A DNA stretch of 64,000 nt, from the NCBI GenBank assembly GCA_038845865.1, contig JAWBQJ010000004.1:77689-141688 (forward strand), read 5' to 3'. A program made the position numbers and the translations under genes. How positions within the stretch are numbered: the first letter of the stretch is position 1; the number at the start of each line of letters is the position of its first letter. The stretch is from Desulfurococcaceae archaeon. GTDB taxonomy: Archaea; Thermoproteota; Thermoprotei_A; Sulfolobales; Desulfurococcaceae. Of this stretch, positions 1 to 62,619 are shown piece after piece. Below the pieces are notes generated by a model, which was not told the origin of the DNA, searched no databases, and worked only from the letters and a program-made list of their open reading frames with translations.

Positions 1-136
1 GTGGAGAACCTAGCTACTAAGCCCATGTTTTCTCTGTCTCTCTTGTAGGATTGTTTTGAGACACTTAGTATTGATGCTTATTTAATGGGTTGTATGTGTT
101 GTGTAGGATTGTCGCTACTAGTTGTCTTATGTGAGC

Positions 137-409
137 TAGAGGTTGGAGCTGTTATTAGTACTTAGTGCTATTATTATGCATATTGTTGTAGGTATAATCC
201 GTTGAGGCCGTGTTCTGCTATTGAAATTAGTGATACCTATTAGTGGCGTTATTGTTCCACCTACTATTGTGATTGTTGCAGCATGTGCTCTTAGGTAGAA
301 ATATTGTAGTTTTAATATACCTACTATTTCGAATACTCCTCCTAATCCTAGTTAGGATTATACCGGTTGTTTTTAGTATCTCTGTGAGTATGTTGATACC
401 CGTAATCAC
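137..409 (-). pseudogene. mrpG/mnhG-like paralog, apparent frameshift (AT-rich copy)
   Basis: Minus-strand translation from GTG at 409 gives MITGINILTEILKTTGIIL, matching the N-terminus of the window's own MrpG (14356..14760, MLEWILIVVGEILVIIGAV). The homology then continues in another frame (LGLGGVFEIVGILKLQYFYLRAHAATITIVGGTITPLIGITNF versus LLGAVGMLRFPNFFVRLHALTVGTIGGAFVPLIGVTLIAL). The frame switch falls around 335..355 with no homopolymer. Local GC is about 35-40%. Confidence 0.45.
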
Positions 410-448
410 TTTTTATCCCTCTCGTAGTGTACCATGAGATGTAGATGT

Positions 449-655
449 CTAAAGTGTGTATGCCCATAGTGCTATTGGGATCATGCATACTGCGAGGATA
501 TGCCTACTTGATAGTGATATCATAGCCATGAATACCGCTAGATCATAGCTCAGTGTATCAATAGCTAGTACTCGGTCAAATACTCTTGATCCACGCATAA
601 CTCCGTATAGGAATAAGACGGCTGAGAGTAAATAGAGTATGATCATGGCCTCCAA
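449..655 (-). CDS. MrpF/MnhF-like Na+/H+ antiporter subunit paralog (low-GC copy)
   Basis: The 68-aa hydrophobic ORF aligns to the mrpF of the mbh operon at 14735..15019 (AIDTLSYDLAVFMAMISLSS...IALWAYTL versus AVDALSYDMAVLLAVLSVLF...VLMLWAYAL). It sits directly upstream of the mrpG-like remnant on the same strand, as in the main operon. Confidence 0.55.
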   Translation of the reverse strand: MEAMIILYLLSAVLFLYGVMRGSRVFDRVLAIDTLSYDLAVFMAMISLSSRHILAVCMIPIALWAYTL

Positions 656-956
656 TAGTGGTTTTACAAATGATCTTCCCTGCCTTTCCCGGGAACTGAA
701 TTCTTTTTAATGGATTCTTGTTTTATACAACAGCCCTATCTTCTTTCCTCGGTGAAATGTCCACGAGACCACAGTATTCGAGATGTGAATAGTCTCAATC
801 CTCCTCACATAGTTATTACCTCGATGAGTAGGCCTACAGGGGTAGTAGCCCGAAAGCCTCGCCCCTTCAAGACAGAGAGAAAACCAGCCCGAGAAACCCT
901 ATTGCTGCAAAAACTTTATTAATATTCATAGTCAACATTATTAAACACTGAGACTC

Positions 957-2471
957 GTGGAAACGGAGTTGAACATGACCGAGACTAAACCCGAGTTGAA
1001 ACTATACGAGAAACTACTTATGATCTTTCCTGGGTACCGTGGATACAAGGAAAAAGAGCTAATAAGAGAAACCGATAAAATAGTCCGAGAGCAACTATAC
1101 CGGAGACTAAAGAACATCATTAACATACTTAGAGATATCCAAGTTGACCTCTCATCGAGAAACAAAATCACCGATGCCCTCGAGATAGAGAGACTAGTCT
1201 ACAGCATAGATACAATAGCAACTAGAACAAAACACGCTCCACACGGGTACAAACCACTATTCTACGTAGTCAAAGTAGATGAAAAAGACTTATCAAAACT
1301 ACTAGAACACGACCTCTCCCTCAGCGAAATAATTGATAAACTAGTAAAAGCAACCGAGACACTTAGAGAGAAAACAACGCGTGGAGAAGACATCAAAGCA
1401 AGTATTAGAGAGATACAAGTCAAAGCTGGCAGAAAGAGACAACATAATCACAAGCACAGGTGTAAGACAATGAGCAAGAAAACAAATGTAATAGAATGGG
1501 TTAACCCAGGACCAGATGACATACTATGGGTATACCCATACGAAGATATCAGATGGGGTAGCATAATAGTAGTGAAAGAGTACGAAGTAGCAGTATTCAT
1601 GCGTGATGGAAAAGTATACGATGTCCTCCCACCCGGTAGACACATGATTACAACACAGAATATACCACTATTAACAAGAGCATACAACCTAGTAATGGGA
1701 TACGGGGAAACACCATTCAAAGCAAACATAGTCTACGTCTCACTAAAGCAATTCAGAGGGAGATTTGGATTATCAACGAGAGTTAAGCTAGGTCCAAGAA
1801 CATTATACATGACAGAGCTACAAGCATATGGAGAATACTGGTTTAGAATAGCAGACCCAGTGTTATTCCTAACACAAATAGCTGGAGCAGTGCAAAGAAT
1901 AGATACACAGAGCGTAACAGAGTTCCTGAGAGGATACATGGTTCAAAACCTAATAGAACAACTCAGCAACTACACAGCTATAGATGTCTACTCAAGACTA
2001 GGCGAAGTAGTATCAAAGATAAAAACGGGAATACTATACGATGCCTTCAAAAGCAGAGGAATAGAGCTAATAGATATACGAGTATCAGGAATATCACTAC
2101 CACAACTAGAGAAAATGGAGAAAGAAGACCCAACATATGGACTACCACTACTCCTAGCAATACAGAAAGGAGATGAGGACAAGGCACTTGAGATCATTAG
2201 AACGGTTGAGAGCCTGAGAGCCCTTGGAAAAGCACCAGGAGCGGGGATACTAGGAGCATTAATAGCAATGCCAGGACTACTACAACCAATACAACCAGCA
2301 CCGCCTCAACAACCACCCCCGCAACCACAGCCAACACAGCCACAGCAACCATCAACAAGCATAGCTGACAAACTACGAGAACTCAAAAAACTCCTAGATG
2401 ATGGATTAATAACACAAGAAGAATACGAGGCAATGAGAAAGAAGATCCTCGAGGAGTTCACGAGGAAATAG
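957..2471 (+). CDS. SPFH/band-7-like (Band_7_1-type) domain protein with PQ-rich linker and C-terminal SHOCT domain
   Basis: 504-aa ORF with a probable real start at ATG 975 (MTETKPE...). The central region (VNPGPDDILWVYPYEDIRWGSIIVVKEYEVAVFMRDGKVYDVLPPGRH...) fits the SPFH/Band_7_1 pattern. The C-terminus (DKLRELKKLLDDGLITQEEYEAMRKKILEEF) is a typical SHOCT motif. The N-terminal ~170 aa are coiled-coil-like. GC is about 38%. Confidence 0.6.
   Translation: METELNMTETKPELKLYEKLLMIFPGYRGYKEKELIRETDKIVREQLYRRLKNIINILRDIQVDLSSRNKITDALEIERLVYSIDTIATRTKHAPHGYKPLFYVVKVDEKDLSKLLEHDLSLSEIIDKLVKATETLREKTTRGEDIKASIREIQVKAGRKRQHNHKHRCKTMSKKTNVIEWVNPGPDDILWVYPYEDIRWGSIIVVKEYEVAVFMRDGKVYDVLPPGRHMITTQNIPLLTRAYNLVMGYGETPFKANIVYVSLKQFRGRFGLSTRVKLGPRTLYMTELQAYGEYWFRIADPVLFLTQIAGAVQRIDTQSVTEFLRGYMVQNLIEQLSNYTAIDVYSRLGEVVSKIKTGILYDAFKSRGIELIDIRVSGISLPQLEKMEKEDPTYGLPLLLAIQKGDEDKALEIIRTVESLRALGKAPGAGILGALIAMPGLLQPIQPAPPQQPPPQPQPTQPQQPSTSIADKLRELKKLLDDGLITQEEYEAMRKKILEEFTRK
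2282..2352 (+). repeat. degenerate CAACCA/CAGCCA tandem repeat encoding a Pro/Gln-rich linker
   Basis: Sequence ccaatacaaccagcaccgcctcaacaaccacccccgcaaccacagccaacacagccacagcaacca encodes PIQPAPPQQPPPQPQPTQPQQP. This low-complexity stretch lies between the SPFH and SHOCT domains. Confidence 0.6.
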
Positions 2472-2484
2472 GTGAACTAAGAAA

Positions 2485-3513
2485 ATGGCGTGGAAAATAT
2501 GGAAAAACGAGACAGAGAGATTTGAAGAGGAGATGAGAAAAGCATTTGACAATAGAAATAAAAATAAGATCGAGAAAGCAATAGAGCACTTCGCGAACGC
2601 ATATAAAATAGCAAATAGCTCCAGTGACCCAAGCCTACGCGAGAAAGCAAGAATAGCGTATGCATACATGTTAATATACAACGCTATACAATACAAAAGC
2701 ACCGATATACTTAAAAATACCTTTGAATACCTAGCAAGTCTACCAGGAGACATCGAGCTCGACCTAGCACTACCAAGACCAGTAAAAGTAGGTGAACTGG
2801 TAGAAGACTTCAAGATCCTCAGCTTACTCTCATCTATACCAAGCATAGAGCTCGAGAACGCATCAAGTATCAACCTCGAAGAAGCGAGGAGAATAAGAGA
2901 AGTCGGAGAGTACCTATTATCAAAAGGAAGCAAAAGACTAATACTAGAAGACATATTCAACATTAAGGAGCCAATGAATATAATTGCCTTGAGACTACTA
3001 GGATACTCAAAGCTAATAGAAGCCACTCACATTGAAAAAGAAGATCTAAACAAAAGCATAGAGCTATACGCGGAGGCACTAGTATACTTCCAACAAGCAG
3101 CTGATAAAATAGCAAGCAACGTGATGACAAAGATAGAGAAACTAGGCAAGGCAACAAAGTGCTGGATATGTGGTAGAGCTATACAAGGCGAGGACGTGAA
3201 CTTCATATACCTTGATAGCTTTCTCACAAAGTACATCGTTGAGAAATACAGCGGTGACGCCCCTGGAATACTGATATCTGAGCATGGAAAAATAGCAACG
3301 TGTAGTGCGTGCTATGGTGTCATATATAACTTAAGCGATAAAATAGCGAGACACTACTATCAAGAAGCAATGAAAGCACTAAGAGAACTTGAACAAAGAC
3401 TCCTTGCAATAATAAGTCAATTACAAGCTCAGATAAACATGCTACAAACACGAATAACAAGCATAGAGTCATCTATCTCATCACTAAGAACAACCATAAT
3501 GTTCAAAAGGTAG
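2485..3513 (+). CDS. hypothetical protein, helical N-terminus, internal C4 zinc ribbon, C-terminal coiled coil
   Basis: 342 aa, starting 14 nt after the previous stop. It has a CxxC...CxxC unit (CWICGRAIQGEDV...CSACYGV) followed by a heptad-like tail (LRELEQRLLAIISQLQAQINMLQTRITSIESSISSL). I recognise no family for it. Confidence 0.55.
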   Translation: MAWKIWKNETERFEEEMRKAFDNRNKNKIEKAIEHFANAYKIANSSSDPSLREKARIAYAYMLIYNAIQYKSTDILKNTFEYLASLPGDIELDLALPRPVKVGELVEDFKILSLLSSIPSIELENASSINLEEARRIREVGEYLLSKGSKRLILEDIFNIKEPMNIIALRLLGYSKLIEATHIEKEDLNKSIELYAEALVYFQQAADKIASNVMTKIEKLGKATKCWICGRAIQGEDVNFIYLDSFLTKYIVEKYSGDAPGILISEHGKIATCSACYGVIYNLSDKIARHYYQEAMKALRELEQRLLAIISQLQAQINMLQTRITSIESSISSLRTTIMFKR

Positions 3514-3519
3514 AACACA

Positions 3520-4980
3520 GTGACAATCGTAGTAGAGAAGCTTAGATGCACTAATTGCGGGGCACCACTACCACAACTAAAACAAGGAGAGTCCTTTATA
3601 AAATGCGACTACTGTGGCTTCATAAATCGCATATATGACTCAACAACATACATGGAACAATTAAAAAGAGAGATATCCAAGTGGATCTCCCAGATACTAC
3701 CACAATATACATCTCTATCCACGATAGCGGACCCCGTTGCAAGACATCATCTATTCCAAGGATATGTAAAACCAAGACTAATCCCAATAAGTGTAAATGC
3801 TAAGACAACATACATAGAGACAATACACAAGCCCTTCATAGCGCTCAACCCCATATACAGCCAAGCATGCAAAGAGCCAAAATCACTATTCGAAGAGTCT
3901 ATTAAAATAGAAAGTGTATCAGAACTAGCTATAAGCGACGAAGATAAATCATTCATTAGTGATACACATCGATATCTCACCGTATCCGCTTACATATGCA
4001 ATGCATTAATAGACGCCAACGAAGAGAAATACACCGAGAGCGCGAAGAACATTGATGAAGCATTACGATACCTAGAAAACACCGAGGATAAAACCCTAGT
4101 AGCAAGGTTGAAAATCGCGAAGTCCACATACACAGCATTAAGCGAACTATATAATAAAAACACACAGGCATCGCATAGCTTAATCGGGTTGGCACTCTCA
4201 CAAGTAAACGAGCTATTAAACATGAAGGAGGCAGCATCCAAGCCCAAATACCAAGGTGCACTAGAGATCGAGAGAGACCTTATCAACTTAGTAAAGAACA
4301 TTATTGAAATATCCAATATATACTTCGAGAATGGACTAGATCCGCTAACCCCAGCTCCAATAATAAAGAAAATACTTACATACATAACTCGCAGCGTTAA
4401 AGACCATAATAGACCATTAAAAGACGCAGTAGAGGTTATTACCCACTGCAAGAAAACTATCTTGTCAAGATTTAGAAGAGCCAGAGTCAAAGTGCTCGGA
4501 GAGGGAGATACATACCTCCCATTCTACGTTGTGGGCGTAAGTATAACTTATACATCTGGGTTACTTTTCAAGAAAGGGCATGGATCGAGGATAGATCTAT
4601 TGATCTCCGCTGCATTCCCAACTCTACCAGCTATAAGCGACGTATTCGGACTATACACGGGTAGATTAGTAAACCTGGAGAAAGAAACTGACAAACTAGA
4701 ATCAATAAGTAGTCTCCTTGAAAACACTAGAGAAGACTACCTCGGTAAGAACACAGTCCTACCATTAATATCACATGTAATAGCTGAAAGCATGATTGAT
4801 AAGTACCTTGAATACATCGGAGCCAGGTATCATGGTAAGATAAAACTATCAACAACACAGGCAAAAGAGGATATTATATATGTGGGTTGTATGCTAGATA
4901 AAGGAGGTTTCAAGCCCTCTATACCACTAACTCCTTTAAGCAGTATTGATTATAATGTATTAAAAGAGATTATGGTGTAG
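3520..4980 (+). CDS. hypothetical protein with N-terminal zinc ribbon
   Basis: 486 aa, starting 7 nt after the previous stop. It opens with a CxxC-x17-CxxC ribbon (CTNCGAPLPQLKQGESFIKCDYCGF). The rest is predicted alpha-helical with no recognisable catalytic motif. Confidence 0.55.
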   Translation: MTIVVEKLRCTNCGAPLPQLKQGESFIKCDYCGFINRIYDSTTYMEQLKREISKWISQILPQYTSLSTIADPVARHHLFQGYVKPRLIPISVNAKTTYIETIHKPFIALNPIYSQACKEPKSLFEESIKIESVSELAISDEDKSFISDTHRYLTVSAYICNALIDANEEKYTESAKNIDEALRYLENTEDKTLVARLKIAKSTYTALSELYNKNTQASHSLIGLALSQVNELLNMKEAASKPKYQGALEIERDLINLVKNIIEISNIYFENGLDPLTPAPIIKKILTYITRSVKDHNRPLKDAVEVITHCKKTILSRFRRARVKVLGEGDTYLPFYVVGVSITYTSGLLFKKGHGSRIDLLISAAFPTLPAISDVFGLYTGRLVNLEKETDKLESISSLLENTREDYLGKNTVLPLISHVIAESMIDKYLEYIGARYHGKIKLSTTQAKEDIIYVGCMLDKGGFKPSIPLTPLSSIDYNVLKEIMV

Positions 4981-4984
4981 TTTC

Positions 4985-5332
4985 ATGGTGTTAAAGATAA
5001 GATTTATACACGACTTCATAGTGTTTACTATATGCCTAGTGATTGGGGTAGCCCTGACATATGTCTACCCAGTTGCACTCTCGATAGCTATATTCATACT
5101 ATTCTATGGCTCCTGGCTACTAATAACGAGCTCTATAACGCATATAGAGCATGTATATGCATTAAATCCACGTGTCGCCAGGTCCTCTCTGGCATCAATA
5201 CTGGTGTTGATATCAACATTGGTTATTTTAAGAGCAATACATCTCGAAATAAGGCTCGCATTGATTACGTTTTTAATCGTATTGATGATTCTAGCTATAT
5301 ACGTATACTACTTATCAAAACGCAGTAGATAA
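4985..5332 (+). CDS. small integral membrane protein (3-4 TM)
   Basis: 115 aa with several long hydrophobic segments and a basic C-terminus (YYLSKRSR). It starts 5 nt after the previous gene. I prefer it over the overlapping +2-frame ORF 5032..5328, which is not protein-like. Confidence 0.5.
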   Translation: MVLKIRFIHDFIVFTICLVIGVALTYVYPVALSIAIFILFYGSWLLITSSITHIEHVYALNPRVARSSLASILVLISTLVILRAIHLEIRLALITFLIVLMILAIYVYYLSKRSR

Positions 5333-5433
5333 GTGGAAAGCAAATTAATAGTTCACCAGGCTATTTCATTAGATAAACTTAAACAATACTTACCACTACA
5401 CTATGTGAATAGCATACGAGTGAGTAATGTTCA

Positions 5434-5508
5434 CGGGCCCGCCGGGATTTGAACCCGGGTCCTCCGGCTCCGCAGGCCGGCGCCCTATCCTGGCTAGGCG
5501 ACGGGCCC
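5434..5508 (-). tRNA. tRNA-Arg (anticodon GCG)
   Basis: Reverse complement is GGGCCCGTCGCCTAGCCAGGATAGGGCGCCGGCCTGCGGAGCCGGAGGACCCGGGTTCAAATCCCGGCGGGCCCG. It has a 7-bp acceptor stem, a CCGGC/GCCGG anticodon stem with loop CUGCGGA (anticodon GCG), and a GGGTTCAAATCCC T-arm. No CCA is encoded. Confidence 0.9.
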
Positions 5509-5516
5509 TGTACTAC

Positions 5517-6176
5517 TTAACGGTACTTTGCTTTAATTACTTTTGTATACTCGTCAGCTATTTGCAGAGGTATTGGTAGTCTCTTCTTCTCAGTGAGTAG
5601 GCTTTTCACGAGCTTGACTGCGTCTTCCAGCCTCACCCTGTAGCCTACGCTAACGTAGAGTAGGGCTCCTTCGTGTTCCAGTACTTCGCCTACGGGCTTC
5701 CCGTGAGCGTGTATGAGTTTTCGGCCTCCCCTCTCAATGATTTCTCCGTACAGGTGGCTTTTAGCCACCCCTATGCTGGGCTTCCCGAGCACTAGGCCCA
5801 TGTGAGTTGCTATTCCGAATGCCCGTGGATGGGATAGCCCGTGACCGTCTACTAAGACCACGTCAGGCACCGTGACTATTTTTCTTAAAACCCTCATGTA
5901 ACCCGGCACTTCCCTAAACGCCAAGAGCCCGGGTATGTACGGTACGTGTACCCTTACCGCCGAGTATGCCTTTTCAACTACTCTCGAGTTCGCGAGGTCG
6001 TATACAACGATGACAGCACACTGAGTACTACGCGCGTACGAGGAGTCGAATGCCCCAACGTAGCGGATCTTACTGAAATCCAGTGGTGGAAAGGCATCCA
6101 GCTCTTCGAGCACTCTGCGTGAAAGCAACAACTGTAGTTTCATTGCCCTCTCAACGCTGAAAATCGCGACCACCAC
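5517..6176 (-). CDS. nfi: endonuclease V (deoxyinosine 3' endonuclease)
   Basis: 219 aa with the hallmark motifs VDGHGLSHPRAFGIATHMG and KPSIGVAKSHL. Confidence 0.85.
   Translation of the reverse strand: MVVAIFSVERAMKLQLLLSRRVLEELDAFPPLDFSKIRYVGAFDSSYARSTQCAVIVVYDLANSRVVEKAYSAVRVHVPYIPGLLAFREVPGYMRVLRKIVTVPDVVLVDGHGLSHPRAFGIATHMGLVLGKPSIGVAKSHLYGEIIERGGRKLIHAHGKPVGEVLEHEGALLYVSVGYRVRLEDAVKLVKSLLTEKKRLPIPLQIADEYTKVIKAKYR
5528..5546 (-). promoter_or_regulatory. putative BRE/TATA element for the tRNA-Arg gene, embedded in the 3' end of nfi
   Basis: The minus strand reads ...caaaagtaattaaagcaaag about 23-36 nt upstream of the tRNA 5' end at 5508. The tRNA begins only 9 nt after the nfi stop codon. 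Confidence 0.3.
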
Positions 6177-9377: not shown

Positions 9378-10445
9378 CTAGCCGAAGAGGGCTGCGTGCG
9401 TGAAAGCGAGGATCAGAGCTATTATCGAGGGTAACAGGCCGTACTTCATCACCAAGGCTATTCCCTGCTCTATTCTCCTACGGCCATACGAGGCCCTGAC
9501 CCACGTCAGTACGAACAGCACTACGAGGAACTTAACTATCAGTAGCGCGGCCCCCTCGAAGCTCAAGTGCCTGTAGGGGTAGGGCCCTCCGATGAACACG
9601 TACGTTATCAGGATGGCAGAAAACGCGAATTTAACGTCATGTGAGAGATTGTATAAAGCCAACACGCTCCCCGAGAACTCGGTCATGTGACCCGCTATAA
9701 GCTCTTGCTCTGCTTCGGGTATGTCGAAGGGCTTGAGGCCTAGCTTAGCCTGCGTGGCCACTATCATCGATAGCAAGGCTAGAGCCATCGACGCGAACGA
9801 CAGGGGAGAGGCTAACCAAGCCCTCCACGAGTTCGTAGCTGCACACGTGACGGAGTATGGGAGATCGCAGTGAGGCGTTAGTACCACCATCGGTACCAGG
9901 ATCGAGCCGAACACTACTGGTTCCACCACCACCGTTAACGCTATTAGCCTCGACAAGCCGGCGATGACGAAGGGGTTGGGGTAGGCTAAGACTGCTAGTA
10001 ATATCCCGGTGAAGTGCCACACCGCGTAGAGGTATACTAAGACGATGACATCGTAGGGAGCAGATAGCCTTACCGGCGATATTGGCAACAATAGCATTGA
10101 GGCTATGACGGACGCTATTGATATTCCCAAGCCTACTTCTGCCAGTAGTGTTGACGAGTATTTCTGCTTTTTAACTTCCTTGGCTAGAAGCAGCTTTAGC
10201 AGATCCGCCAGCGGCTGGAGTAGCCCTAGAGGGCCTGTATACGACGGCCCCATTCTATTCTGCATCCTAGCCGTGGCCTTTCTGTAAAACCATTCACCGA
10301 AGAGCGCTAGCGTGGCTGAAAATACAAGTCCTGGAAATACCAGCACCGCGAATATAGTGTAGAGGAGCTCGCTCACCAAGGGCCTCACCAAACCACGTAA
10401 ACGATCAGCGCTATTAACGCTATGAGCAGCACCAGCCCGAGCCAC
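9378..10445 (-). CDS. mbhM: NuoH/MbhM-like membrane subunit of the Mbh-type complex
   Basis: 355 aa and polytopic, with NuoH signatures (RMQNRMGPSYTGPLGLLQPLADLLKLL). Confidence 0.85.
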   Translation of the reverse strand: MARAGAAHSVNSADRLRGLVRPLVSELLYTIFAVLVFPGLVFSATLALFGEWFYRKATARMQNRMGPSYTGPLGLLQPLADLLKLLLAKEVKKQKYSSTLLAEVGLGISIASVIASMLLLPISPVRLSAPYDVIVLVYLYAVWHFTGILLAVLAYPNPFVIAGLSRLIALTVVVEPVVFGSILVPMVVLTPHCDLPYSVTCAATNSWRAWLASPLSFASMALALLSMIVATQAKLGLKPFDIPEAEQELIAGHMTEFSGSVLALYNLSHDVKFAFSAILITYVFIGGPYPYRHLSFEGAALLIVKFLVVLFVLTWVRASYGRRRIEQGIALVMKYGLLPSIIALILAFTHAALFG

Positions 10446-10744
10446 ATACTCATGTACCCGTACCAGTCATTGAGGACGCCCGTGTGAACGGAGTCTCTAA
10501 GCGTTTCAAAGGCCCTTCTCCACGCCTTCCGCACGATGCCCCAGTAAAGTGCGAGAACGCTGGGTATCTTGCGCCTCAGTACTTCTTCGCCTTCACCGCC
10601 AATGTACATCTCAGCGCCTTCGGTCGACATCCTACCACGTCTAGCCACCACGACTATGGCCACCGTGATCAGCGCAACGAGGATCGTGGCCCCCGTTAGG
10701 ATCAGGCTTAACCCTACTATGTCTAAATTACACGTCACGACCAT
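10385..10744 (-). CDS. small membrane protein of the mbh/mrp operon (MbhI-like?)
   Basis: 119 aa with two TM segments. It lies within the operon and overlaps the annotated nuoH start by 60 nt. Confidence 0.4.
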   Translation of the reverse strand: MVVTCNLDIVGLSLILTGATILVALITVAIVVVARRGRMSTEGAEMYIGGEGEEVLRRKIPSVLALYWGIVRKAWRRAFETLRDSVHTGVLNDWYGYMSMWLGLVLLIALIALIVYVVW

Positions 10745-10750
10745 GCCCGT

Positions 10751-12370
10751 TCACCTGCCTAGAAGACTGGCCATGTAAGCCAGAAACACCTCTATGTACT
10801 TCTTGTAGCCATACATGGCCGAGCAGACGTCTTCCAGGTACTCGTAAAGCCCCACGGGCAGTAGGGTACCCAGGAGAACTAGAATGACCGCGAGCAGTAG
10901 GCCCGGTAGCGAGAACCTCATGTCCTCCTTTACATTTAAACCCTTAACGCCGGTACCGAAGACCATGAGTAAAAGCTTCGCGTAGCCCATGACGCTTATG
11001 GCCGTCGCTAATATGACCATTAGCGCTATTACTGGCTGCGAAACCTCTAGTGCTGCCTGGTATATCATTAACTTGCTGAAGAACCCGCCGAGGGGTGGTA
11101 GCCCTACCAGGTTTAAGACGCCCAAGACCACGCTCGTGCCAGCCACGGGCATGTACCTCCCCACACCTGCAAGGGCATCAATGTCGCGGCTACCAGAGGC
11201 CTTCTCCAAGGCCCCTACTGCCAAGAACAACATCGAACTTGTCACCACGTAGTTAACCATGTGGAATATTGCCGCCATCAACGGCAACCTGCCCTCCTGT
11301 GAGAACGCCGTTAATCCCAGCGCCATGTAGATGAAGCCCACGTGGCTTATAGAGCTGTAACCCAGTAACCTCTTCGCGTCTCTCTGCAAAGCCATCATGA
11401 CCCCCCCGACAATGGAGGCAACTACGCCCAGAGCTAGTAGCACGTACAAGACGGTTGACCTAACGCCGTTCTCCGCGAGTATGGAGTCCGGTCCGAATAT
11501 GGTGAAGAGGTAGCGTATAACAACGTACGTTGACGCCATTTCCGCCACCGGTAGCACGGCCGATACGGGTGTGGGGGCCTCGCTTATCGCGTCAGGTAGC
11601 CAGAAGTGGTTTGGAAACAGCGCTGACTCTAACGTGAATACCCAGATAATAATAGCCATGGCTATGGCCGTGGCGACGCGTATATCTGCGAAGTAGCCGC
11701 CACTAAGTAGCGCGGACTGGTAGTAGCCGAACTCTGAAGGCCTCGACTTTATGGCTAAGTCCGCCATGTTAAGCGTCTGGTAGCTTCCATATATTAGTAG
11801 AGTCGAGAAGAAGTACAGTACGAGCGCCACGATGCTAACTAGGGAGTACTTTATCGCGGCCTCCACGGCTTCTGCCCGCGTCCTGTGGAATGCCACCAGC
11901 ACGTAGAGGGATATGCACATCACCTCCATCATCACGAAAAGATTAAAGATGTCCCCGGTGTAGAAAACCCCCATAACGCCCGCCGTAAAGCCCAGTACGG
12001 CCGTGTAAATGTAAGATAGAGTTGAAGGCTTGTAGTTCTCCAAGTAGCTTGTAGACGCCACAACGGATAGGAGTACTATGATAGACGCTAGAAGTGCCAA
12101 GGAGGCGCTAAGCTTGTCCACTATGTAAGCAATGCCTATGGGAGGAGGCCAGCCGCCGAACGGGTAGAGAGCCACGTCTACGCCGGTGAAGATGTTTCGC
12201 GCTATGATTCCAGCGATAACGGTCGCCGTAGCTACCACCACGATCGCGTAGAGCATGAAGAATTTCCTGCTCTTCACGAACAAGCCGAGTAGCGGCGTTA
12301 TGAAAGCCAAGGAAACGAGAAATGGAGGTACCAGCCCGTAGAGGATGTCGAGGTACTGCATGCACGACAC
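10751..12370 (-). CDS. mbhH: MrpD/NuoL-like antiporter-type subunit
   Basis: 539 aa and polytopic, with MrpA/D-NuoL/M/N family features (a proton-pumping membrane arm subunit). Confidence 0.85.
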   Translation of the reverse strand: MSCMQYLDILYGLVPPFLVSLAFITPLLGLFVKSRKFFMLYAIVVVATATVIAGIIARNIFTGVDVALYPFGGWPPPIGIAYIVDKLSASLALLASIIVLLSVVASTSYLENYKPSTLSYIYTAVLGFTAGVMGVFYTGDIFNLFVMMEVMCISLYVLVAFHRTRAEAVEAAIKYSLVSIVALVLYFFSTLLIYGSYQTLNMADLAIKSRPSEFGYYQSALLSGGYFADIRVATAIAMAIIIWVFTLESALFPNHFWLPDAISEAPTPVSAVLPVAEMASTYVVIRYLFTIFGPDSILAENGVRSTVLYVLLALGVVASIVGGVMMALQRDAKRLLGYSSISHVGFIYMALGLTAFSQEGRLPLMAAIFHMVNYVVTSSMLFLAVGALEKASGSRDIDALAGVGRYMPVAGTSVVLGVLNLVGLPPLGGFFSKLMIYQAALEVSQPVIALMVILATAISVMGYAKLLLMVFGTGVKGLNVKEDMRFSLPGLLLAVILVLLGTLLPVGLYEYLEDVCSAMYGYKKYIEVFLAYMASLLGR

Positions 12371-12373
12371 CCC

Positions 12374-12886
12374 TTAGTCGAATACCCGTTTAGAGTACTT
12401 CTCGAAGGTTTCCGATATCATCTTGTGGCACTCCTCAGGCTCAAACGCTTTAACGTCTATCCAGTGAACGTAGAAGCATCTTCTTTCCTCGTCCACGTCA
12501 ACGACGACCGTACCCGGCGTGTTGGTTATGGAGTTAGCTACCGCCGTTATCCCGTAAGCCGACGAGACCTTAACGGGCACCTTGACTATACCTGGGTTTA
12601 TGGGCATTCTCGGGCTTAAGATTCTCCTAATAACGTCTACGTGGGCTTTAACCTCGTCTATGAAGAAGTAGTGCAGTGCGTACGCTATAAGCCACGCCCA
12701 TCTCTTAACATCGAATACCTTTGAAGCGTTCGTAAGTAGGATGTTTGCTGTAACCGCTCCCACTAGTACCGACGTTACCAGGCCCGTGACTATGTCGTAC
12801 ACGGTCGCCGAGCCAGAGAAGACTATGTAGGTCACAAACACTAGTAGCGTTACGGGTATTGCCCTTGACCACCTACCCACGCTCAT
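12374..12886 (-). CDS. MrpE/MnhE-like subunit
   Basis: 170 aa with two N-terminal TM helices and a soluble C-terminal domain, typical of MnhE. It is in operon context. Confidence 0.65.
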   Translation of the reverse strand: MSVGRWSRAIPVTLLVFVTYIVFSGSATVYDIVTGLVTSVLVGAVTANILLTNASKVFDVKRWAWLIAYALHYFFIDEVKAHVDVIRRILSPRMPINPGIVKVPVKVSSAYGITAVANSITNTPGTVVVDVDEERRCFYVHWIDVKAFEPEECHKMISETFEKYSKRVFD

Positions 12887-13281
12887 CCCCTCAATTTAGC
12901 TATTTTCCTAACGTCGGTTGTACCATAAATACGGTAAATCTGTGTAGTTATAAATATCAGGAAGAGAGTTACAGCGAGGCCTATGACTATAGCTGTAAGG
13001 ACTAAAGCCTGGGGTACCGGGTCCACGGCCTTGGCAACGAAGAGCTCCACGTCTTCGGGTCTCGGCGGTATCGACACTAACACTGGAGGTATCGGGTTCG
13101 GCTCGGCGTACCTAAACCCTATAAGAACGGCTAAGAGGTTTACGGTGTCACTGAATATTGTAAGAGCTATTATCTTCTTCACGAGGCTGGGCCTCGCGAA
13201 TATACCATACAGGCTCAGCCCCACGTTTATGATCATGGACAACATAACGACGTTGAATAGGAATACAGGCGTCATCTCCAC
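12883..13281 (-). CDS. MrpC/NuoK-like subunit
   Basis: 132 aa with three TM helices and a NuoK-like pattern. Confidence 0.7.
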   Translation of the reverse strand: MEMTPVFLFNVVMLSMIINVGLSLYGIFARPSLVKKIIALTIFSDTVNLLAVLIGFRYAEPNPIPPVLVSIPPRPEDVELFVAKAVDPVPQALVLTAIVIGLAVTLFLIFITTQIYRIYGTTDVRKIAKLRG

Positions 13282-14102
13282 TAATCCTCACCCTTTAAAA
13301 CAACCTCCTTCGCAGGTGCCTCGGGCACCGTTATAAGGATGAGTAATGCAACGAATCCGAACGCAACCGCGAACATTTCAGCTACGTTGAATAGTAAAAG
13401 GGTTCCACCTAGTACAGTGGCGTCTCCTACGTATGAGGGTATGCCGTAAGGTGCCCCCACCTTTGGCTGGTTTTGGAATATATACGCGTAACCTCCACGA
13501 GTTAAGGCTACTAGTAGAACTAGGTACGTGGTAACCGCTATTGCCGCCAAGCCGGCACTCCTGAGGAGAACTGCCCGTTTCACGGGCACTCTCTGGGCTA
13601 AGAAGTGCACCGAGAAGGCGATGATCATTAGCATGGGTGCCACTGCTATGGTAGCCCCTCCTTGGAAGCCTCCACCCGGTGTTAAGTGTCCGTGAAATGC
13701 TATTGAGATCCCAACAGCCACAATCATGATCGTCGTCAGCCTGGTGACAGTCTTCACTATTAATGAGAGGCCGCCTCCTCCTGAACCCGGTCCCGGTACC
13801 CTTTCCCCGAGCCCTCTAAAGATCATGAGGGCGCCGACGATCGCCAAGAACATCACGGACGTTTCGAAGAGCGTATCCAGCCCCCTGTAGTCCCAAACTA
13901 TGGCTGTTACGGCCTCTGGTGATAGGGGGCTTAGGGCGAAGTTTGTATTAAATGTGGTGTTCAAGTAGATCTTGGCGAGAGAACGCACTTCGAGTGGTGG
14001 CATGTAAAGGCTTATGCCCCCCACCGTAAAGGCCGTGCCAAGCCCTATGGTCAGTAGAACTAGCGACGTTATTACAACTAGGTGTAAGTAGCTCCTCATC
14101 AT
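13281..14102 (-). CDS. MrpB-domain membrane subunit
   Basis: 273 aa and polytopic, with MnhB-like features. Its start overlaps the mrpC-like stop by 1 nt. Confidence 0.65.
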   Translation of the reverse strand: MMRSYLHLVVITSLVLLTIGLGTAFTVGGISLYMPPLEVRSLAKIYLNTTFNTNFALSPLSPEAVTAIVWDYRGLDTLFETSVMFLAIVGALMIFRGLGERVPGPGSGGGGLSLIVKTVTRLTTIMIVAVGISIAFHGHLTPGGGFQGGATIAVAPMLMIIAFSVHFLAQRVPVKRAVLLRSAGLAAIAVTTYLVLLVALTRGGYAYIFQNQPKVGAPYGIPSYVGDATVLGGTLLLFNVAEMFAVAFGFVALLILITVPEAPAKEVVLKGED

Positions 14103-14359
14103 TCACCACCCTCGAACCTCTCCGTCTTCTTAATTAAGACCAGTACTAGTGCGGTGTAAAGGCCAACCGATACAGGTATGTACGTTAAAAATATGTCAGG
14201 GGCCATTATCAGGTAGAATATTAGGGCGTAAAGAGAGCTCTGCAGTGCTGAATATATTACGGCCTTTACGAGGTCCTTTTCTATTACCGCAAGGTATACT
14301 GCTACGATGGAGAGTAACGCGGATGTTGCCATCAGCAAGTAGTAGATTAAGACGATCAC
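14099..14359 (-). CDS. small MrpB-N-terminal-like membrane subunit (MbhD-like)
   Basis: 86 aa with 2-3 TM helices, overlapping its neighbours by 4 nt. Confidence 0.5.
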   Translation of the reverse strand: MIVLIYYLLMATSALLSIVAVYLAVIEKDLVKAVIYSALQSSLYALIFYLIMAPDIFLTYIPVSVGLYTALVLVLIKKTERFEGGE

Positions 14360-14760
14360 GACCCACCACCTTTCCCTCTGTCCTCTTCGAGCTTATCCAC
14401 GACTTTCGGGTAAACTACAGCGGCTCTAGACCTGTGAGCAGCCCTCGCAATGGCGTGCGATCCCGCGGGAGCCAGGAAGAGGAGCAGCAATGCAGTTATA
14501 AACGATGCTCCCGCCACGAACCACCTGTAGGGTCCGAGAAAGTCTGCTCCCAGGGCTATCAGCGTAACGCCAATCAGTGGAACGAACGCCCCTCCAATAG
14601 TCCCCACAGTGAGTGCGTGGAGCCTTACGAAGAAGTTGGGGAACCTGAGCATTCCCACCGCTCCGAGAAGGTCACATACTGCCCCGATGATTACGAGGAT
14701 TTCGCCAACCACTATTAGAATCCATTCCAGCATTTCACTCACCGAACTCCTTTGCCTCAA
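14356..14760 (-). CDS. MrpG/MnhG-like subunit
   Basis: 134 aa. It contains the conserved stretch GAVCDLLGAVGMLRFPNFFVRLHALTVGTIGG. Confidence 0.75.
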   Translation of the reverse strand: MRQRSSVSEMLEWILIVVGEILVIIGAVCDLLGAVGMLRFPNFFVRLHALTVGTIGGAFVPLIGVTLIALGADFLGPYRWFVAGASFITALLLLFLAPAGSHAIARAAHRSRAAVVYPKVVDKLEEDRGKGGGS

Positions 14761-15019
14761 GGTACTTGGCCATGTAAACGTCTAGTGCATAAGCCCAGAG
14801 CATGAGGACTATGGCACAGGAAATGAGTATAGGTGATTTGAAAAGCACGGATAGAACAGCTAAGAGCACAGCCATATCGTACGACAGGGCATCCACGGCT
14901 ATGACCATGTCGGGTATTGTAGGTCCTTTAAGGAGCCTAATGATGTAAAGAACTATCGACACTATGAATAGGGGTATGACGAGCGTTAGTACCGTCATAA
15001 CGTGCGCCTCCACGCTCAT
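14735..15019 (-). CDS. MrpF/MnhF-like subunit
   Basis: 94 aa and hydrophobic, containing the stretch AVDALSYDMAVLLAV. Confidence 0.75.
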   Translation of the reverse strand: MSVEAHVMTVLTLVIPLFIVSIVLYIIRLLKGPTIPDMVIAVDALSYDMAVLLAVLSVLFKSPILISCAIVLMLWAYALDVYMAKYLEAKEFGE

Positions 15020-15423
15020 TGTTTCACCTCCGTGGCTTTGAGCGTTTTAAGTGTAAGGTCCTCGGAGCTTATTTCCCTAGACGACGAGAGCTGATATGTA
15101 GGCGTGACTATAAATGCGTTTACCGGGCACACCTTAACACACCTGTAGCAAAAAACGCACGCCATGTAGTTTACAACGGGGTAGAGACCTCTGAGGTTGT
15201 GTTTGAGCTTCACGTTTTCAGGTAGTTTTTTCATCTCTATGGCCTTAGCTGGGCATTCAAGGGAGCAAAGCGTGCACCCGGTGCACTTGCCAAGATCGGC
15301 GTAAAAAGCGCCTCTGAGGTCTTCTTCGACGGTTATTTTCGCCTTTTTAGGGTATTCTATCGTCGAGGGCCTCGAGAAGAAGTTCTTCAAAGCCTCCTTT
15401 AGGACGCTCATACGCGCTAGCAC
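15016..15423 (-). CDS. mbhN: NuoI/MbhN-like 2x[4Fe-4S] ferredoxin subunit
   Basis: Two CxxCxxCxxxCP motifs are present (CTGCTLCSLECP and CVFCYRCVKVCP). Confidence 0.85.
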   Translation of the reverse strand: MLARMSVLKEALKNFFSRPSTIEYPKKAKITVEEDLRGAFYADLGKCTGCTLCSLECPAKAIEMKKLPENVKLKHNLRGLYPVVNYMACVFCYRCVKVCPVNAFIVTPTYQLSSSREISSEDLTLKTLKATEVKQ

Positions 15424-16628
15424 CTTCTCCGGGCCAGGTAATTAAGCGGAACTCTTTTCTCGCCCCCGCCCTTCAGGTCAATCACCGTGACCCTCTCCAT
15501 GCAGGATATACAGGGGTCGTAGCTTACAAGTATGACCGGTACATCAGCTACACTGTGCCCCACGTAGCTAAATGCACTGTTTATCACGTTTACTGCAGAC
15601 GGTGTCCGTATCTTGACACGGTAGGGATTGGTGCCTCCAGTGCTGATGACGTAGTATACGAGCTCGCCACGAGGTGCCTCGACGCGGGCGTACGCCTCTC
15701 CTGGAGGAAACGTCCTCGGAAGCTTCTTCTCGTCAACTACCGCGGGGCCTTCTGGTAAGTGTTCGAGGATGTACTTACACATCTCTAAGGACTCTAGTGC
15801 CTCGTCCCACCTGACGAGCATCCTAGCTAAGGAGTCACCTTCAGGCCTCGTCACAATGCTCCATGGTACTTCTCCATAGGCATCGTGCTTGTCCTCCGCT
15901 CTTACATCGCTTTTAACACCGCTCGCTCTGAGTACCGGCCCCACCAGTGAGTGGTTGAGCACATCAATAGGTTTAAGCTTACCCACTTCGGCTAGCCTAC
16001 TGTGGATCGTTGAGTCCTCCTCGAACAGCTTCCTGTAGTACCTAAGCCTGGGTTCGAGCCTTTTCAGTAGGCCTAGAATCTTTTCACGCTTTAGACCGTC
16101 TATGTCTCTTCTAACGCCGCTAAACATGTGTATTTCAGCTAAAACTCTATTTCCAGCAAGCACTTCTTTCGCTTTCATGACGAGCTCCCTATCCCTCATT
16201 ATGTACATGAACAGCGTGTCGAACCCTATTACCTCGGCCATGATCGCGTTTATGAGCATGTGACTGTGCACCCTCTCAAGCTCCATGGCTAGAACCCTTA
16301 TGTACTTAGCCCGCTGTGAAGGTTCTAGCCCGGCGATGTGTTCAACCGCCCTCGTATAGCAGTTTTCGTGAACGGTATTACATATCCCGCACACTCTTGA
16401 AGCGATGAACTTGCCCTTGTAGTATGAGTTTTTCTCCATCAGCTTCTCTATCCCCCTGTGGTTGTACCCCGTGTTTATTTCCGCGTGAACGACTTCTTCG
16501 CCGTCCGCATATATTTTCAGCATTACGGGCTCGTGAATTGCCGGGTGCTGGGGGCCTATGGGTATTTCCAGCGATATCGGTATTTTTAACAGCGTGGTCG
16601 CGTCTTTGACGGCTGATTCCGTGTCCAT
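15417..16628 (-). CDS. mbhL: [NiFe]-hydrogenase large subunit / NuoD-like (MbhL)
   Basis: 403 aa. It has the N-terminal RxCGxCxxxH motif (RVCGICNTVH) and the C-terminal DPCxxC motif (DPCISCMER), followed by a 23-aa tail like the cleavable extension of hydrogenase large subunits. Confidence 0.85.
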   Translation of the reverse strand: MDTESAVKDATTLLKIPISLEIPIGPQHPAIHEPVMLKIYADGEEVVHAEINTGYNHRGIEKLMEKNSYYKGKFIASRVCGICNTVHENCYTRAVEHIAGLEPSQRAKYIRVLAMELERVHSHMLINAIMAEVIGFDTLFMYIMRDRELVMKAKEVLAGNRVLAEIHMFSGVRRDIDGLKREKILGLLKRLEPRLRYYRKLFEEDSTIHSRLAEVGKLKPIDVLNHSLVGPVLRASGVKSDVRAEDKHDAYGEVPWSIVTRPEGDSLARMLVRWDEALESLEMCKYILEHLPEGPAVVDEKKLPRTFPPGEAYARVEAPRGELVYYVISTGGTNPYRVKIRTPSAVNVINSAFSYVGHSVADVPVILVSYDPCISCMERVTVIDLKGGGEKRVPLNYLARRRC

Positions 16629-60724: not shown

Positions 60725-61993
60725 ATGTTTGACCCCGAGGATGTCAGGAAAGACTTCCCGATACTGGAAAGGTCAATTAACGGCAAGAAACTGATTTACT
60801 TTGACAATGCCGCTTCAGCGCAAAAGCCAATACATGTCATCAAGGCCATGGAGGAGTTCATTAAGACCCACTATGCTAACGTTCATCGGGGATTGCATAC
60901 GCTTAGCCAGGAGGCGAGTCAAGCGTATGAAGAAGCCCATGAAGTGGTTGCAAAGTTCATTAATGCATACTCTTGGCGCGAAGTAATATTCGTGAACAAT
61001 ACAACCGAGGCCATTAACACGGTTGCATACGGCTGGGGTCTTTGGAACCTGAAAGAAGGCGACGAGGTGGTTGTAACCTTAATGGACCATCACAGCAACA
61101 TGTTACCATGGAGGCTCATAGCGCAGCTAAAACGGGCAAAGGTAAAATACGTTGATATTACGCAGGACGGCTACTTAAGATACGACCAGCTAGAGGACCT
61201 CATAACCGAGAGGACCAGGATCGTGGGATTCCCCGTGGCGAGCAACGTTCTCGGAACAATAAACGATGCAAAGAGGATTGCTAAGTTAGCGCACGAAGTG
61301 GGTGCAATAGTTGTAGCTGATGGTGCACAAAGCGTTCCCCACGTGCCTACGAATGTCCGCGAACTCGGAGTGGACTTTTTGGCTTTTAGTGGCCATAAAA
61401 TGCTTGGCCCAACGGGCATAGGGGTACTTTGGGGGAGGGAGGACGTCCTCGAAGAAATGAAGCCGTTTAAAGTGGGTGGTGATACGATCAAGGACGTAAC
61501 GCTAGACAGCATTGTCTGGCACGACCTACCCTGGAGGTTTGAAGCTGGAACTCCGAACATCGTAGAAGGCATAGGCCTTGCAGAAGCCGTCAAGTACTTA
61601 TCACACATAGGGATGGAGAACGTCAGAGAGCACGAAGTAGAGCTGATAAAGTATACGTTTAAGAGGTTCGAAGAGCTGCTCGGTGAAATAGAATACTATG
61701 GCCCCAGGAATCCCCGCGATAAAACCGGAGTGGTATCATTTAATATCAAGGGTTTAAATCACCACACGGTTGCAGCAGCCCTAGACATGTTCGGTATAGC
61801 AGTTAGGTCGGGCATGCACTGCGCACATCCACTACACTACAGGCTGGGGTTAAAAGGCTCTGTGAGGGCGAGTTACTATCTCTACAACACACTAGAAGAA
61901 GTAGACTACTTTATCGACTCGCTAGAAAAGATAATTGTCCTCAAAGAAGGCCTTTCAAAGGAAGTACCTAGTAGGGTATGCACGGGTACGTAG
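60725..61993 (+). CDS. sufS: cysteine desulfurase, SufS-type (class V aminotransferase)
   Basis: The PLP lysine sits in SGHKMLGPTGIGVLWG and the catalytic Cys in MHCAH. Confidence 0.85.
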   Translation: MFDPEDVRKDFPILERSINGKKLIYFDNAASAQKPIHVIKAMEEFIKTHYANVHRGLHTLSQEASQAYEEAHEVVAKFINAYSWREVIFVNNTTEAINTVAYGWGLWNLKEGDEVVVTLMDHHSNMLPWRLIAQLKRAKVKYVDITQDGYLRYDQLEDLITERTRIVGFPVASNVLGTINDAKRIAKLAHEVGAIVVADGAQSVPHVPTNVRELGVDFLAFSGHKMLGPTGIGVLWGREDVLEEMKPFKVGGDTIKDVTLDSIVWHDLPWRFEAGTPNIVEGIGLAEAVKYLSHIGMENVREHEVELIKYTFKRFEELLGEIEYYGPRNPRDKTGVVSFNIKGLNHHTVAAALDMFGIAVRSGMHCAHPLHYRLGLKGSVRASYYLYNTLEEVDYFIDSLEKIIVLKEGLSKEVPSRVCTGT

Positions 61994-62067: not shown

Positions 62068-62238
62068 TTACTCCTTAACTGGCCCTAGTATTCTGGCGAA
62101 TTTCTTGCCAGTGTATGGACTAACCGCGAAGGCAATCTTTATTTTGCCTCTCTTCGTCTCCTTCACTACGACCTCGTACTTGTCTGTTTCAAAGTACTGC
62201 TTTGCCTTTAGGTCGAAGAACTTTAGTTTCTCGGGCAT
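62068..62238 (-). CDS. unannotated 56-aa lysine-rich small protein, Cren7-like
   Basis: The minus-strand ORF ATG...TAA encodes MPEKLKFFDLKAKQYFETDKYEVVVKETKRGKIKIAFAVSPYTGKKFARILGPVKE. Its C-terminal half aligns to Cren7 (RGKIKIAFAVSPYTGKKFARI versus [19 protein letters not shown]). It is below the 60-aa cutoff of the ORF track, and a TATA-like ttaaaag lies about 45 nt upstream. Confidence 0.45.
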   Translation of the reverse strand: MPEKLKFFDLKAKQYFETDKYEVVVKETKRGKIKIAFAVSPYTGKKFARILGPVKE

Positions 62239-62619
62239 GTCCTTCACCCATTATTCAACATTATTCTTTACTACCTGTGCTTTTAAGCTTAATTTTTTGC
62301 TTACACCTTATCCACGTGCACACTTTAATATAAAAAATAATGTAAAAGTAAATAATATTAATATTATGAAGAAGCCGTATTCAAAGTTGGATCGCGTAGC
62401 GCGAAAAATAATCTCATATGTAGATTATTATTAGGTGTCATTGAAAAGTGTAGCATTACATTGAACTAATAGCTACCATTAAGCTGGAGATATTACATTC
62501 GTTTTGTATAAAAGCGTTAGATCGTCGAAACGGGGCGATGCAGCCTCCTTGAGGTAGCGTAACTTGCCCTATAATCGGTAATTAGTTTATGCAGTGAAAT
62601 TAGTAGATTTAATATGTCA

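Follow-up and report, generated by a model that had tools for sequence, protein, structure and literature searches.

The block and its surroundings

At the left end of a 64,000-nt stretch of a Desulfurococcaceae archaeon (assembly GCA_038845865.1, contig JAWBQJ010000004.1, positions 77,689-141,688 of the forward strand; hereafter the window), DNA of low guanine-plus-cytosine (GC) content runs up to the 3' end of an intact tRNA-Arg(GCG) gene. Positions 1-5433 are the in-window part of a 5.6-kb insert, which is delimited by GC and tetranucleotide statistics, by mapping onto a contig of the same species, by a tRNA-derived direct repeat and by the homology of its left flank to DNA of a relative. 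The insert contains decayed mrp genes and a five-gene operon that encodes an SPFH protein. It is best seen as a fossil, a piece of donor chromosome that was inserted and that holds no integrase, rather than as an integrative element that is still live.

The tRNA-Arg(GCG) gene lies at 5434-5508 on the minus strand and is called as a single tRNA by both ARAGORN and Rfam (61 bits). The first host gene past it, also on the minus strand, encodes endonuclease V (EndoV; 5517-6176; Pfam E = 5e-53). Contigs of the same species were located through an exact match to the 486-amino-acid (aa) protein of the block, op4. One of them, L002 from ENA (10.7 kb), is 99.6% identical to window positions 1-5525 and adds 5188 bp leftwards; another, L017 (324 kb), covers the entire region and comes from the NCBI metagenome-assembled genome (MAG) GCA_038727435.1, in which contig JAVYVW010000003.1 holds this locus. 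On both contigs the left boundary falls 167 bp beyond the window edge, and the entire insert corresponds to L002 5022-10641, or window -166 to 5433. From left to right it consists of 68 bp without assignment, remnants of mnhB, mrpG and mrpF, about 290 bp without assignment, five co-oriented genes (op1 to op5) and a 101-bp spacer that adjoins the tRNA gene.

The composition of the block is foreign to its host. Its GC content is 39.8%, against 50.2 +/- 1.1% elsewhere in the window (z = -9.6; baseline of 5-kb host windows, mean 0.502, standard deviation 0.011), and its tetranucleotide distance to the host stands at z = +21 against 5-kb host windows. The GC-normalised tetranucleotide correlation with the host is 0.37 for the block versus 0.83 +/- 0.03 for host windows. 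In a 1-kb profile, GC is 0.39-0.41 over positions 1-5000, 0.47 over 5001-6000, and 0.46-0.545 beyond, except for one window of 0.40 at 62-63 kb. The final 101 bp before the tRNA gene have 33% GC, so the change in composition is abrupt and sits at the tRNA 3' end. On the other side, GC in L002 falls from 0.50-0.58 before about position 5000 to 0.37-0.42 after about 5200. An earlier note, made from the letters of the window, had described a sharp step from about 35-40% to about 52% GC at the 3' end of the tRNA, with the left boundary probably outside the window, and had proposed composition statistics as a check. The step, its position, the outlying boundary and a large deviation are all borne out; only the host value of 52% was slightly high, since 50% is measured.

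The isolated low-GC window at 62-63 kb contains about 500 bp (62100-62700) with 32-38% GC, between a cysteine-desulfurase-like gene (60725-61993) and a gene for a zinc-ribbon protein (62620-63171). A relation to the block was considered and rejected; the stretch looks like an AT-rich intergenic region.

The tRNA-derived repeat and the empty site

The best repeat family in L002 is formed by the 3' part of the tRNA, with two direct copies (4963-5021 and 10633-10691) that lie 5.67 kb apart. Their tRNA-derived cores, L002 4972-5021 and 10642-10691, are identical at 40 of 50 nt and align with a score of 60, while the maximum among 200 shuffles was 23. The right-hand core is the 3' 50 nt of tRNA-Arg(GCG) (window 5434-5483, minus strand). 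The left-hand core, outside the window at -216 to -167, is a decayed 3' fragment of tRNA-Arg(CCU) type. It lacks the 5' third of a tRNA, ends near tRNA position 27 and, as read from its sequence, has A-C mismatches in the T stem and the anticodon stem.

The 3' 36 nt of tRNA-Arg are identical among the GCG, TCG and CCT genes of these genomes, and the left fragment matches the resident GCG tRNA across these first 36 nt only. Over 45-47 nt, with the anticodon loop included, it is 93% identical to the intact tRNA-Arg(CCT) found on contigs L031-L033, which belong to other Desulfurococcaceae MAGs. The scar is therefore made of two isoacceptors, CCU and GCG. A complete, intron-containing or split tRNA was ruled out for the left fragment, which is called by neither ARAGORN nor Rfam and has no matching 5' half anywhere in L002. 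A second motif resembling an attachment (att) site (TGTTCACG...CGGGATT), in the 68-85 bp between the left repeat and the mnhB remnant, was set aside as being at chance level, with 56 of 500 shuffles reaching its score.

Immediately before the left copy, 185 bp (L002 4787-4971) show 73% identity to the sequence that directly follows tRNA-Arg(GCG) in the relative represented by contig L012. The left copy thus lies on DNA that adjoins the tRNA gene in a relative, and the block is an insertion bracketed by a direct repeat. The same homology gives the ancestral order as flank, tRNA-Arg(GCG), EndoV; the present order is flank, tRNA 3' fragment, 5.6-kb insert, intact tRNA-Arg(GCG), EndoV. Like a tRNA-targeting integrative element, the insertion occupies the 3' part of a tRNA gene while an intact tRNA is kept, and it is bracketed by an attL/attR-like repeat, though an imperfect one that mixes isoacceptors. 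Overlapping this flank, L002 4648-4851 is a pseudogenised homologue, with three stops and one gap, of an intact gene for an 88-aa membrane protein that follows tRNA-Arg(GCG) in L012.

Relatives and conspecific assemblies

Seven relatives (L010-L016), all Desulfurococcaceae or Thermosphaera MAGs, were found by scanning species-representative genomes with the adjacent EndoV (62-66% identity). EndoV adjoins tRNA-Arg(GCG) in every one of them, and the synteny mrp - aRF1 - DUF2204 - EndoV is common to all seven. No gene of the block or of its left flank occurs within 10 kb past the tRNA in these relatives, among which the sequence past the tRNA varies between lineages. The block is thus absent from the same site in related genomes, as would be expected of a mobile element.

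Within the species, the insert is contained in at least six independent assemblies that cross its junctions. The right junction is crossed by four NCBI MAG contigs, one of them of 324 kb, and by two ENA contigs; the left junction is crossed with identical sequence by L002, L017 and L036. This bears on the possibility of an assembly or binning chimera, in which the reads of a low-GC organism were joined to the host at a conserved tRNA. Many short-read contigs do stop inside the tRNA, as such an artefact would predict, but the sequence that tRNA-Arg paralogues share accounts for these ends, and with both junctions crossed repeatedly a chimera is extremely improbable. The contig breaks were also considered as a strain polymorphism, which was rejected on the grounds that every contig crossing the site carries the block.

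Two regions near this site have unusual features of their own. The host-side flank at L002 1-4216 has 52-59% GC, above the 50% of the window, and a slightly low tetranucleotide correlation with the host (0.77). It encodes a radical SAM/SPASM protein, a Cys-rich membrane protein of 327 aa, a membrane protein of 127 aa and a lone N6/N4 DNA methyltransferase, and none of these genes was found past the tRNA in the relatives. In L012, the DNA past the same tRNA-Arg(GCG) is also low in GC (positions 11000-16000, 0.34-0.40 against 0.43-0.46). It was rejected as an element: its open reading frames (ORFs) resemble, by eye, the purine-biosynthesis genes PurK and PurE, and no mobile-element genes are recognisable in it. 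The MAG of L012 carries the SPFH cassette on another contig (L032), beside tRNA-Arg(CCT).

Decayed mrp genes and the donor

The left part of the insert holds three gene remnants, all on the minus strand. The mnhB remnant (1-142, and on to window -99) is in two pieces with an internal deletion and is 55-57% identical at the aa level to the MnhB of contig L007 (blastn, tblastn). The mrpG (mnhG) remnant at 189-351 is frameshifted and 69-70% aa identical to MnhG of L007 (tblastn). The mrpF pseudogene at 390-667 (tblastn; Pfam MrpF_PhaF E = 1.3e-4) has a 68-aa ORF (449-655) as its largest piece and a frameshifted C-terminus. Frameshifts, stops and large deletions run through these remnants, no intact mnhB, mrpG or mrpF is present in the block, and the pseudogenes make up about 15% of the insert.

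A functional mrp cluster of the host lies elsewhere in the window (9378-15019). The mrpF pseudogene is 67-68% aa identical to MrpF of L007 versus about 42% to the resident MrpF (window 14735-15019). The resident cluster, over 9378-15423, encodes MrpF, MrpG, MbhD, MnhB, MnhC, MnhE, MrpD and a NADH-dehydrogenase subunit, followed by NiFe-hydrogenase-like and ferredoxin genes. Because it continues into these last genes, it looks like an Mbh/Mbx-type membrane complex.

Contig L007, used for comparison as an example of the donor type, is 12 kb long and uniformly of 37% GC. Besides an intact mrp cluster and three further genes, it carries the operon at 70-94% aa identity and the shared spacer, after which comes the 3' end of a tRNA-like gene. 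The order mnhB, mrpG, mrpF, operon in the block is collinear with it, save that mbhD, which stands between mnhB and mnhG in L007, is deleted. The tetranucleotide pattern of the block is nearest to that of the non-operon part of L007, and a MAG whose op4 is 83% identical is labelled Ignisphaera sp. Together, these likenesses identify the donor as a low-GC (about 37-39%) Ignisphaera-like archaeon of the Desulfurococcales. The DNA that moved looks like a piece of chromosome, not like a virus or a plasmid.

The SPFH operon

The remainder of the insert is taken up by the operon, on the plus strand. The first gene, op1 (957-1469), encodes a protein of about 172-178 aa that matches the LIMLP_15305 family (NCBIfam E = 1.2e-11, below the curated cutoff). 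The second, op2 (1470-2471), encodes a 333-aa protein in which an SPFH domain (Band_7_1, PF13421, E = 3e-29, above the curated cutoff) is joined through a Pro/Gln-rich linker to a SHOCT domain (PF09851, E = 1e-9) at the C-terminus. The 342-aa product of op3 (2485-3513) is modelled by AlphaFold2 (mean predicted local distance difference test score, pLDDT, 84) as a TPR-like helical repeat into which a CxxC...CxxC zinc ribbon is inserted, with a long coiled coil at the C-terminus. The 486-aa product of op4 (3520-4980; pLDDT 62) has a zinc ribbon at its N-terminus, followed by a core of helical repeats and a C-terminus that is poorly modelled. The last gene, op5 (4985-5332), is an ORF for a hydrophobic (membrane) protein of 115 aa that is present in every copy of the operon. 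The 101-bp spacer (5333-5433; 33% GC) belongs to the cassette as well, being homologous to the spacer after op5 in L007, L008 and L029. The earlier note had seen in the block only unrecognised genes plus decayed mrpF and mrpG. The decay is confirmed by tblastn and extends to mnhB, while the SPFH and SHOCT domains of op2 show that not all of the genes are unrecognised.

The operon is under purifying selection, with a ratio of non-synonymous to synonymous substitution rates (dN/dS) of 0.05-0.08 for op2. The cysteines of the zinc ribbons are invariant in both op3 (Cys226/229/273/276) and op4 (Cys10/13/29/32). The operon is rare, with 9-19 homologue clusters; op4 has 9 among 5.8 billion proteins. 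In Foldseek searches against PDB, the best matches of op3 were BamD/TPR proteins at E of about 0.02, none of them significant, and op4 had no match below E = 0.1 and none of recombinase or nuclease type.

Band-7, zinc-ribbon and membrane-protein gene neighbourhoods have been tied to membrane-stress responses in bacteria, and SHOCT has been proposed as an anchor to the inner membrane leaflet (PMC8581546, PMC11237479). As in pspA-ydjGHI of Bacillus subtilis and similar neighbourhoods described in these papers, a soluble Band-7-type SPFH protein is encoded in the cassette together with zinc-ribbon proteins and a small membrane protein. In contrast to the B. subtilis system, op3 and op4 are TPR-like and have no sequence relation to YdjG or YdjH. 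Searches against sequence families detected no PspA/ESCRT-III homologue in the cassette; in them op1 matches LIMLP_15305 only. By analogy, the operon most plausibly encodes a sub-membrane scaffold or a membrane-stress complex.

The window differs from its conspecifics at one point in the operon. It lacks 20 nt between 1419 and 1420 (L002 6608-6627), which lie between the short direct repeats ATACAAG and ATACGAG. The deletion fuses op1 and op2 in frame into a 504-aa ORF (957-2471) in the window only, while L002, L003 and L017 have two separate genes; this reflects either variation between strains or a fault in the assembly.

Copies of the cassette in other genomes

At the DNA level, the 4.5-kb cassette (window 912-5470) is 85-86% identical to copies in L008 (an Ignisphaera MAG contig), L025, L029 and L031, and 79% identical to that of L007. 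Alignments to relatives cover just about 2.2 of 10.5 kb of the neighbouring host DNA and show about 72% identity. On L031-L033 and L025, the cassette is a low-GC island (0.36-0.40 in 0.43-0.48) that ends about 190-220 bp from tRNA-Arg(CCT). On L008, L029 and L030, the last 22 nt of the cassette are a relic of the L007-type tRNA, and tRNA-Arg(TCG) follows after 1 kb. The copies of this low-GC subclade always stand beside a tRNA gene. More distant versions of the operon (30-66% identity) are found in ordinary chromosomal contexts with no tRNA nearby, for example in the complete genome of Desulfurococcus mucosus. In this order, then, the SPFH operon is old and cellular in nature; one low-GC subclade of it spread between lineages after their divergence and was kept by selection.

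These comparisons also bear on whether the block could be native DNA, vertically inherited with an odd composition and lost from the relatives. Its presence in all conspecific assemblies that cross the site agrees with this, as do the distant operon versions at 30-42% identity in the ordinary chromosomal contexts of D. mucosus and of metagenomes. Such an origin is nevertheless very improbable. It is at odds with the 10-point drop in GC and the foreign tetranucleotide signature, with the bracketing repeat and the reconstructed empty site, and with a second, decayed mrp set that resembles that of another lineage. In addition, synonymous divergence (dS) of the cassette from L029 and L031 is 0.3-0.75 (dN/dS 0.07-0.20), against genomes whose host genes are saturated.

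The tRNA relics lie at L008 6050-6063, L029 7000-7013 and L030 3344-3357, and the next 1 kb or so is without long ORFs. The relic may be the scar of an earlier location of the cassette. L008 and L029 are 98% identical over 6 kb and diverge exactly at tRNA-Arg(TCG) (L008 7073-7334 versus L029 8008-8736), the two tRNAs differing in the 5' third only; past the tRNA, the next gene encodes EndoV in L008 and a proteasome beta subunit in L029. The tRNA linked to EndoV reads TCG in L008 versus GCG in the window and seven relatives. This divergence may be a recombination breakpoint inside tRNA-Arg genes, possibly with a swap of the anticodon.

Probable course of integration and immobilisation

We favour, with a probability of roughly 0.6, a fossil Campbell-type integration of Ignisphaera-like donor DNA at a secondary tRNA-Arg site, through a circular intermediate with a CCU-type att sequence, followed by immobilisation. 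The incoming circle would have borne a CCU-type tRNA-Arg 3' segment of about 50 nt as its attachment sequence. Its cargo would have been a stretch of donor chromosome that ran from within the mrp cluster through the five genes of the SPFH operon beside it to the neighbouring tRNA of the donor. The present structure would then be the scar of a single reciprocal crossover between this molecule and the chromosome, within the 36 nt common to tRNA-Arg isoacceptors. Since such a crossover would fall 3' of the anticodon, its right-hand product would be an intact tRNA-Arg(GCG), driven from its own 5' side beside EndoV. The left-hand product would be a dead hybrid of the host 3' end and the incoming CCU anticodon arm, truncated near position 27 and left on the flank that the host had from the start. 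The redundant mrp genes have decayed since the insertion, while purifying selection has held the SPFH operon.

The integrase would have acted in trans or been lost later. By its length and position (3' end to anticodon stem), the repeat agrees with archaeal att sites, and among the described routes to permanent capture are the use of a secondary att site and the loss of the integrase (PMC8371274). With no integrase left, diverged repeat copies and an insert fixed in the species, the block is now immobile.

Several observations weigh against this scheme. Searches of ORFs with Pfam, PHROGs, PADLOC and NCBIfam brought up no integrase, whole or split, either in the block or in the 5 kb left of it, and none is seen among the conserved host genes to the right. 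Replication, virion and conjugation genes are likewise absent from the block and the 5 kb to the left, where PHROG matches are to families of unknown function and fall on the SHOCT tail of op2 only. There were no PADLOC matches, and no viral or plasmid carrier or relative was found in IMG/VR. No recombinase-like fold was found in op3 or op4 with AlphaFold2 and Foldseek. The cargo is collinear with a donor chromosome and not with any known virus or plasmid. The repeat copies are only 80% identical, so they may not have arisen as an identical att pair. On L031 and L029, the left edge of the cassette has no bracketing repeat or tRNA fragment. The spacer that adjoins the tRNA here is of the type that in L007, L008 and L029 adjoins a different tRNA-like 3' end and not tRNA-Arg(CCU), so the donor arrangement that the scheme requires is not observed. 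Finally, neither an empty site nor an excised form was seen within the species.

The search for an integrase extended to smaller traces. A split integrase of SSV type, Int(N)/Int(C), was not found, nor was an ORF of Int(C) size beside either repeat copy; reading frames of 50 and 61 aa run across the copies and end in the spacer and in the mnhB remnant. At the left junction no integrase remnants were seen, by eye and by tblastn with the Mrp proteins only. That op3 or op4 might be a novel recombinase was rejected, the models giving TPR/BamD/Bro1-like helical repeats only, none significant. Lacking integrase, replication, virion and conjugation genes, the block is not self-mobile now. The earlier note had proposed an integrated or horizontally acquired element with no visible integrase, and had suggested extending the contig leftwards for a repeat of the tRNA-Arg 3' segment and looking in relatives for an empty site. 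The integrase is indeed missing from the block ORFs and from 5 kb leftwards, the repeat was found in L002, and the seven relatives keep EndoV beside tRNA-Arg(GCG) without the block, with L012 supplying the reconstructed empty site. Horizontal acquisition and integration at the tRNA therefore hold, on composition, repeat and relatives, while an integrative element is suggested by the scar and not by any mobile-element gene.

The lack of such genes brings in the main rival explanation, in which host homologous recombination on the invariant 36-nt tRNA-Arg 3' segment captured linear or circular donor DNA with no integrase or mobile element involved. The segment is identical in the GCG, TCG and CCT genes, and the cargo resembles a donor chromosome. 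This explanation is plausible because L008 and L029, 98% identical up to tRNA-Arg(TCG), diverge inside it and continue into different genes, which indicates that recombination inside tRNA-Arg genes occurs in the group. On the other hand, 36 nt is a short substrate, and a crossover with a complete donor tRNA should leave both tRNAs at full length, but the left copy ends near position 27, which would call for a later deletion. That the left copy breaks off at an att-like boundary speaks for the integrase route, although a later deletion could mimic this, because the adjacent mrp remnants carry large deletions. We regard capture of this kind as possible but rather doubtful.

The CCU character of the left fragment also invites a scheme of two steps, in which the cassette was first located at the tRNA-Arg(CCU) of the host, and was then excised as a circle and reinserted at tRNA-Arg(GCG) by recombination between isoacceptors. 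The cassette does stand at tRNA-Arg(CCT) in L025 and L031-L033, and breakpoints occur inside tRNA-Arg genes. Yet the spacer next to the tRNA is of the type seen in L007 and L029 (type A), not of the type found at the CCT loci (type B), and the mrp remnants connect the block with a donor like L007 rather than with a context like that of L031. The final step would, moreover, be the same Campbell-type event that we favour. An earlier residence at tRNA-Arg(CCU) is accordingly quite unlikely.

Relation to known systems

Among known systems, the closest likeness is to captured or degenerate tRNA-integrated elements of the Sulfolobales and Thermococcales, of SSV type and pNOB8 type (PMC8371274). These share with the block an att-sized repeat from the 3' end to the anticodon stem, a foreign composition and absence from relatives, and their immobilisation by mismatched att copies and a missing integrase is alike. 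The block differs from them in having no Int(N) or Int(C) fragment and no plasmid or virus gene, in a cargo that is collinear with an archaeal chromosome, and in repeats that come from two isoacceptors (CCU and GCG). Bacterial tRNA-linked genomic islands also deviate in composition, lie next to a tRNA 3' end, have part of the tRNA repeated on their other side and carry a cargo that is adaptive or of unknown function; in contrast to these, the block is archaeal, very small at 5.6 kb, without an integrase and about 15% pseudogenes.

A third comparison concerns the pTN3 integrase of Thermococcus, which makes inversions and needs identical segments of at least 104 bp (Cossu et al. 2017, through PMC8371274). 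In recombination of pTN3 type, tRNA genes serve as breakpoints, as in the split of L008 and L029 at tRNA-Arg. Here, only 36-50 nt are shared, the outcome is an insertion, and no pTN3-like integrase was seen.

The insertion does not overturn current views and is an ordinary case of a known type of capture. Its value lies in a single site at which the donor type, the scar, the empty site, the decay of redundant cargo and the retention of useful cargo can be seen together, documenting the fixation of foreign genes in a hyperthermophilic archaeon. The scar of two isoacceptors, and a cassette that stands beside three tRNA-Arg genes, suggest that the paralogous tRNA-Arg genes serve the order as shared sites of docking and rearrangement. 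The uncharacterised SPFH/SHOCT, zinc-ribbon and TPR operon is a reasonable target for work on archaeal membrane organisation, because selection has retained it in several hosts after transfer.

It is tempting to speculate further, though we consider it unlikely, that the 36-nt 3' segment of tRNA-Arg is a portable docking sequence that moves operons and anticodon arms between tRNA-Arg loci and species without an integrase encoded by the element. If this were so, the SPFH cassette would have docked at GCG, TCG and CCT genes, and the CCU/GCG scar would record a move from one isoacceptor to another. The tRNA beside EndoV, GCG in the window and seven relatives versus TCG in L008, could then be a case of a swapped anticodon.

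Further tRNA-like sequences are found on L031 at 19192-19385, where two 3'-end matches are 91-96% identical to the tRNA-like end of L007 and to tRNA-Arg 3' parts. ARAGORN does not call them, and they may be intron-containing tRNA genes or fragments.

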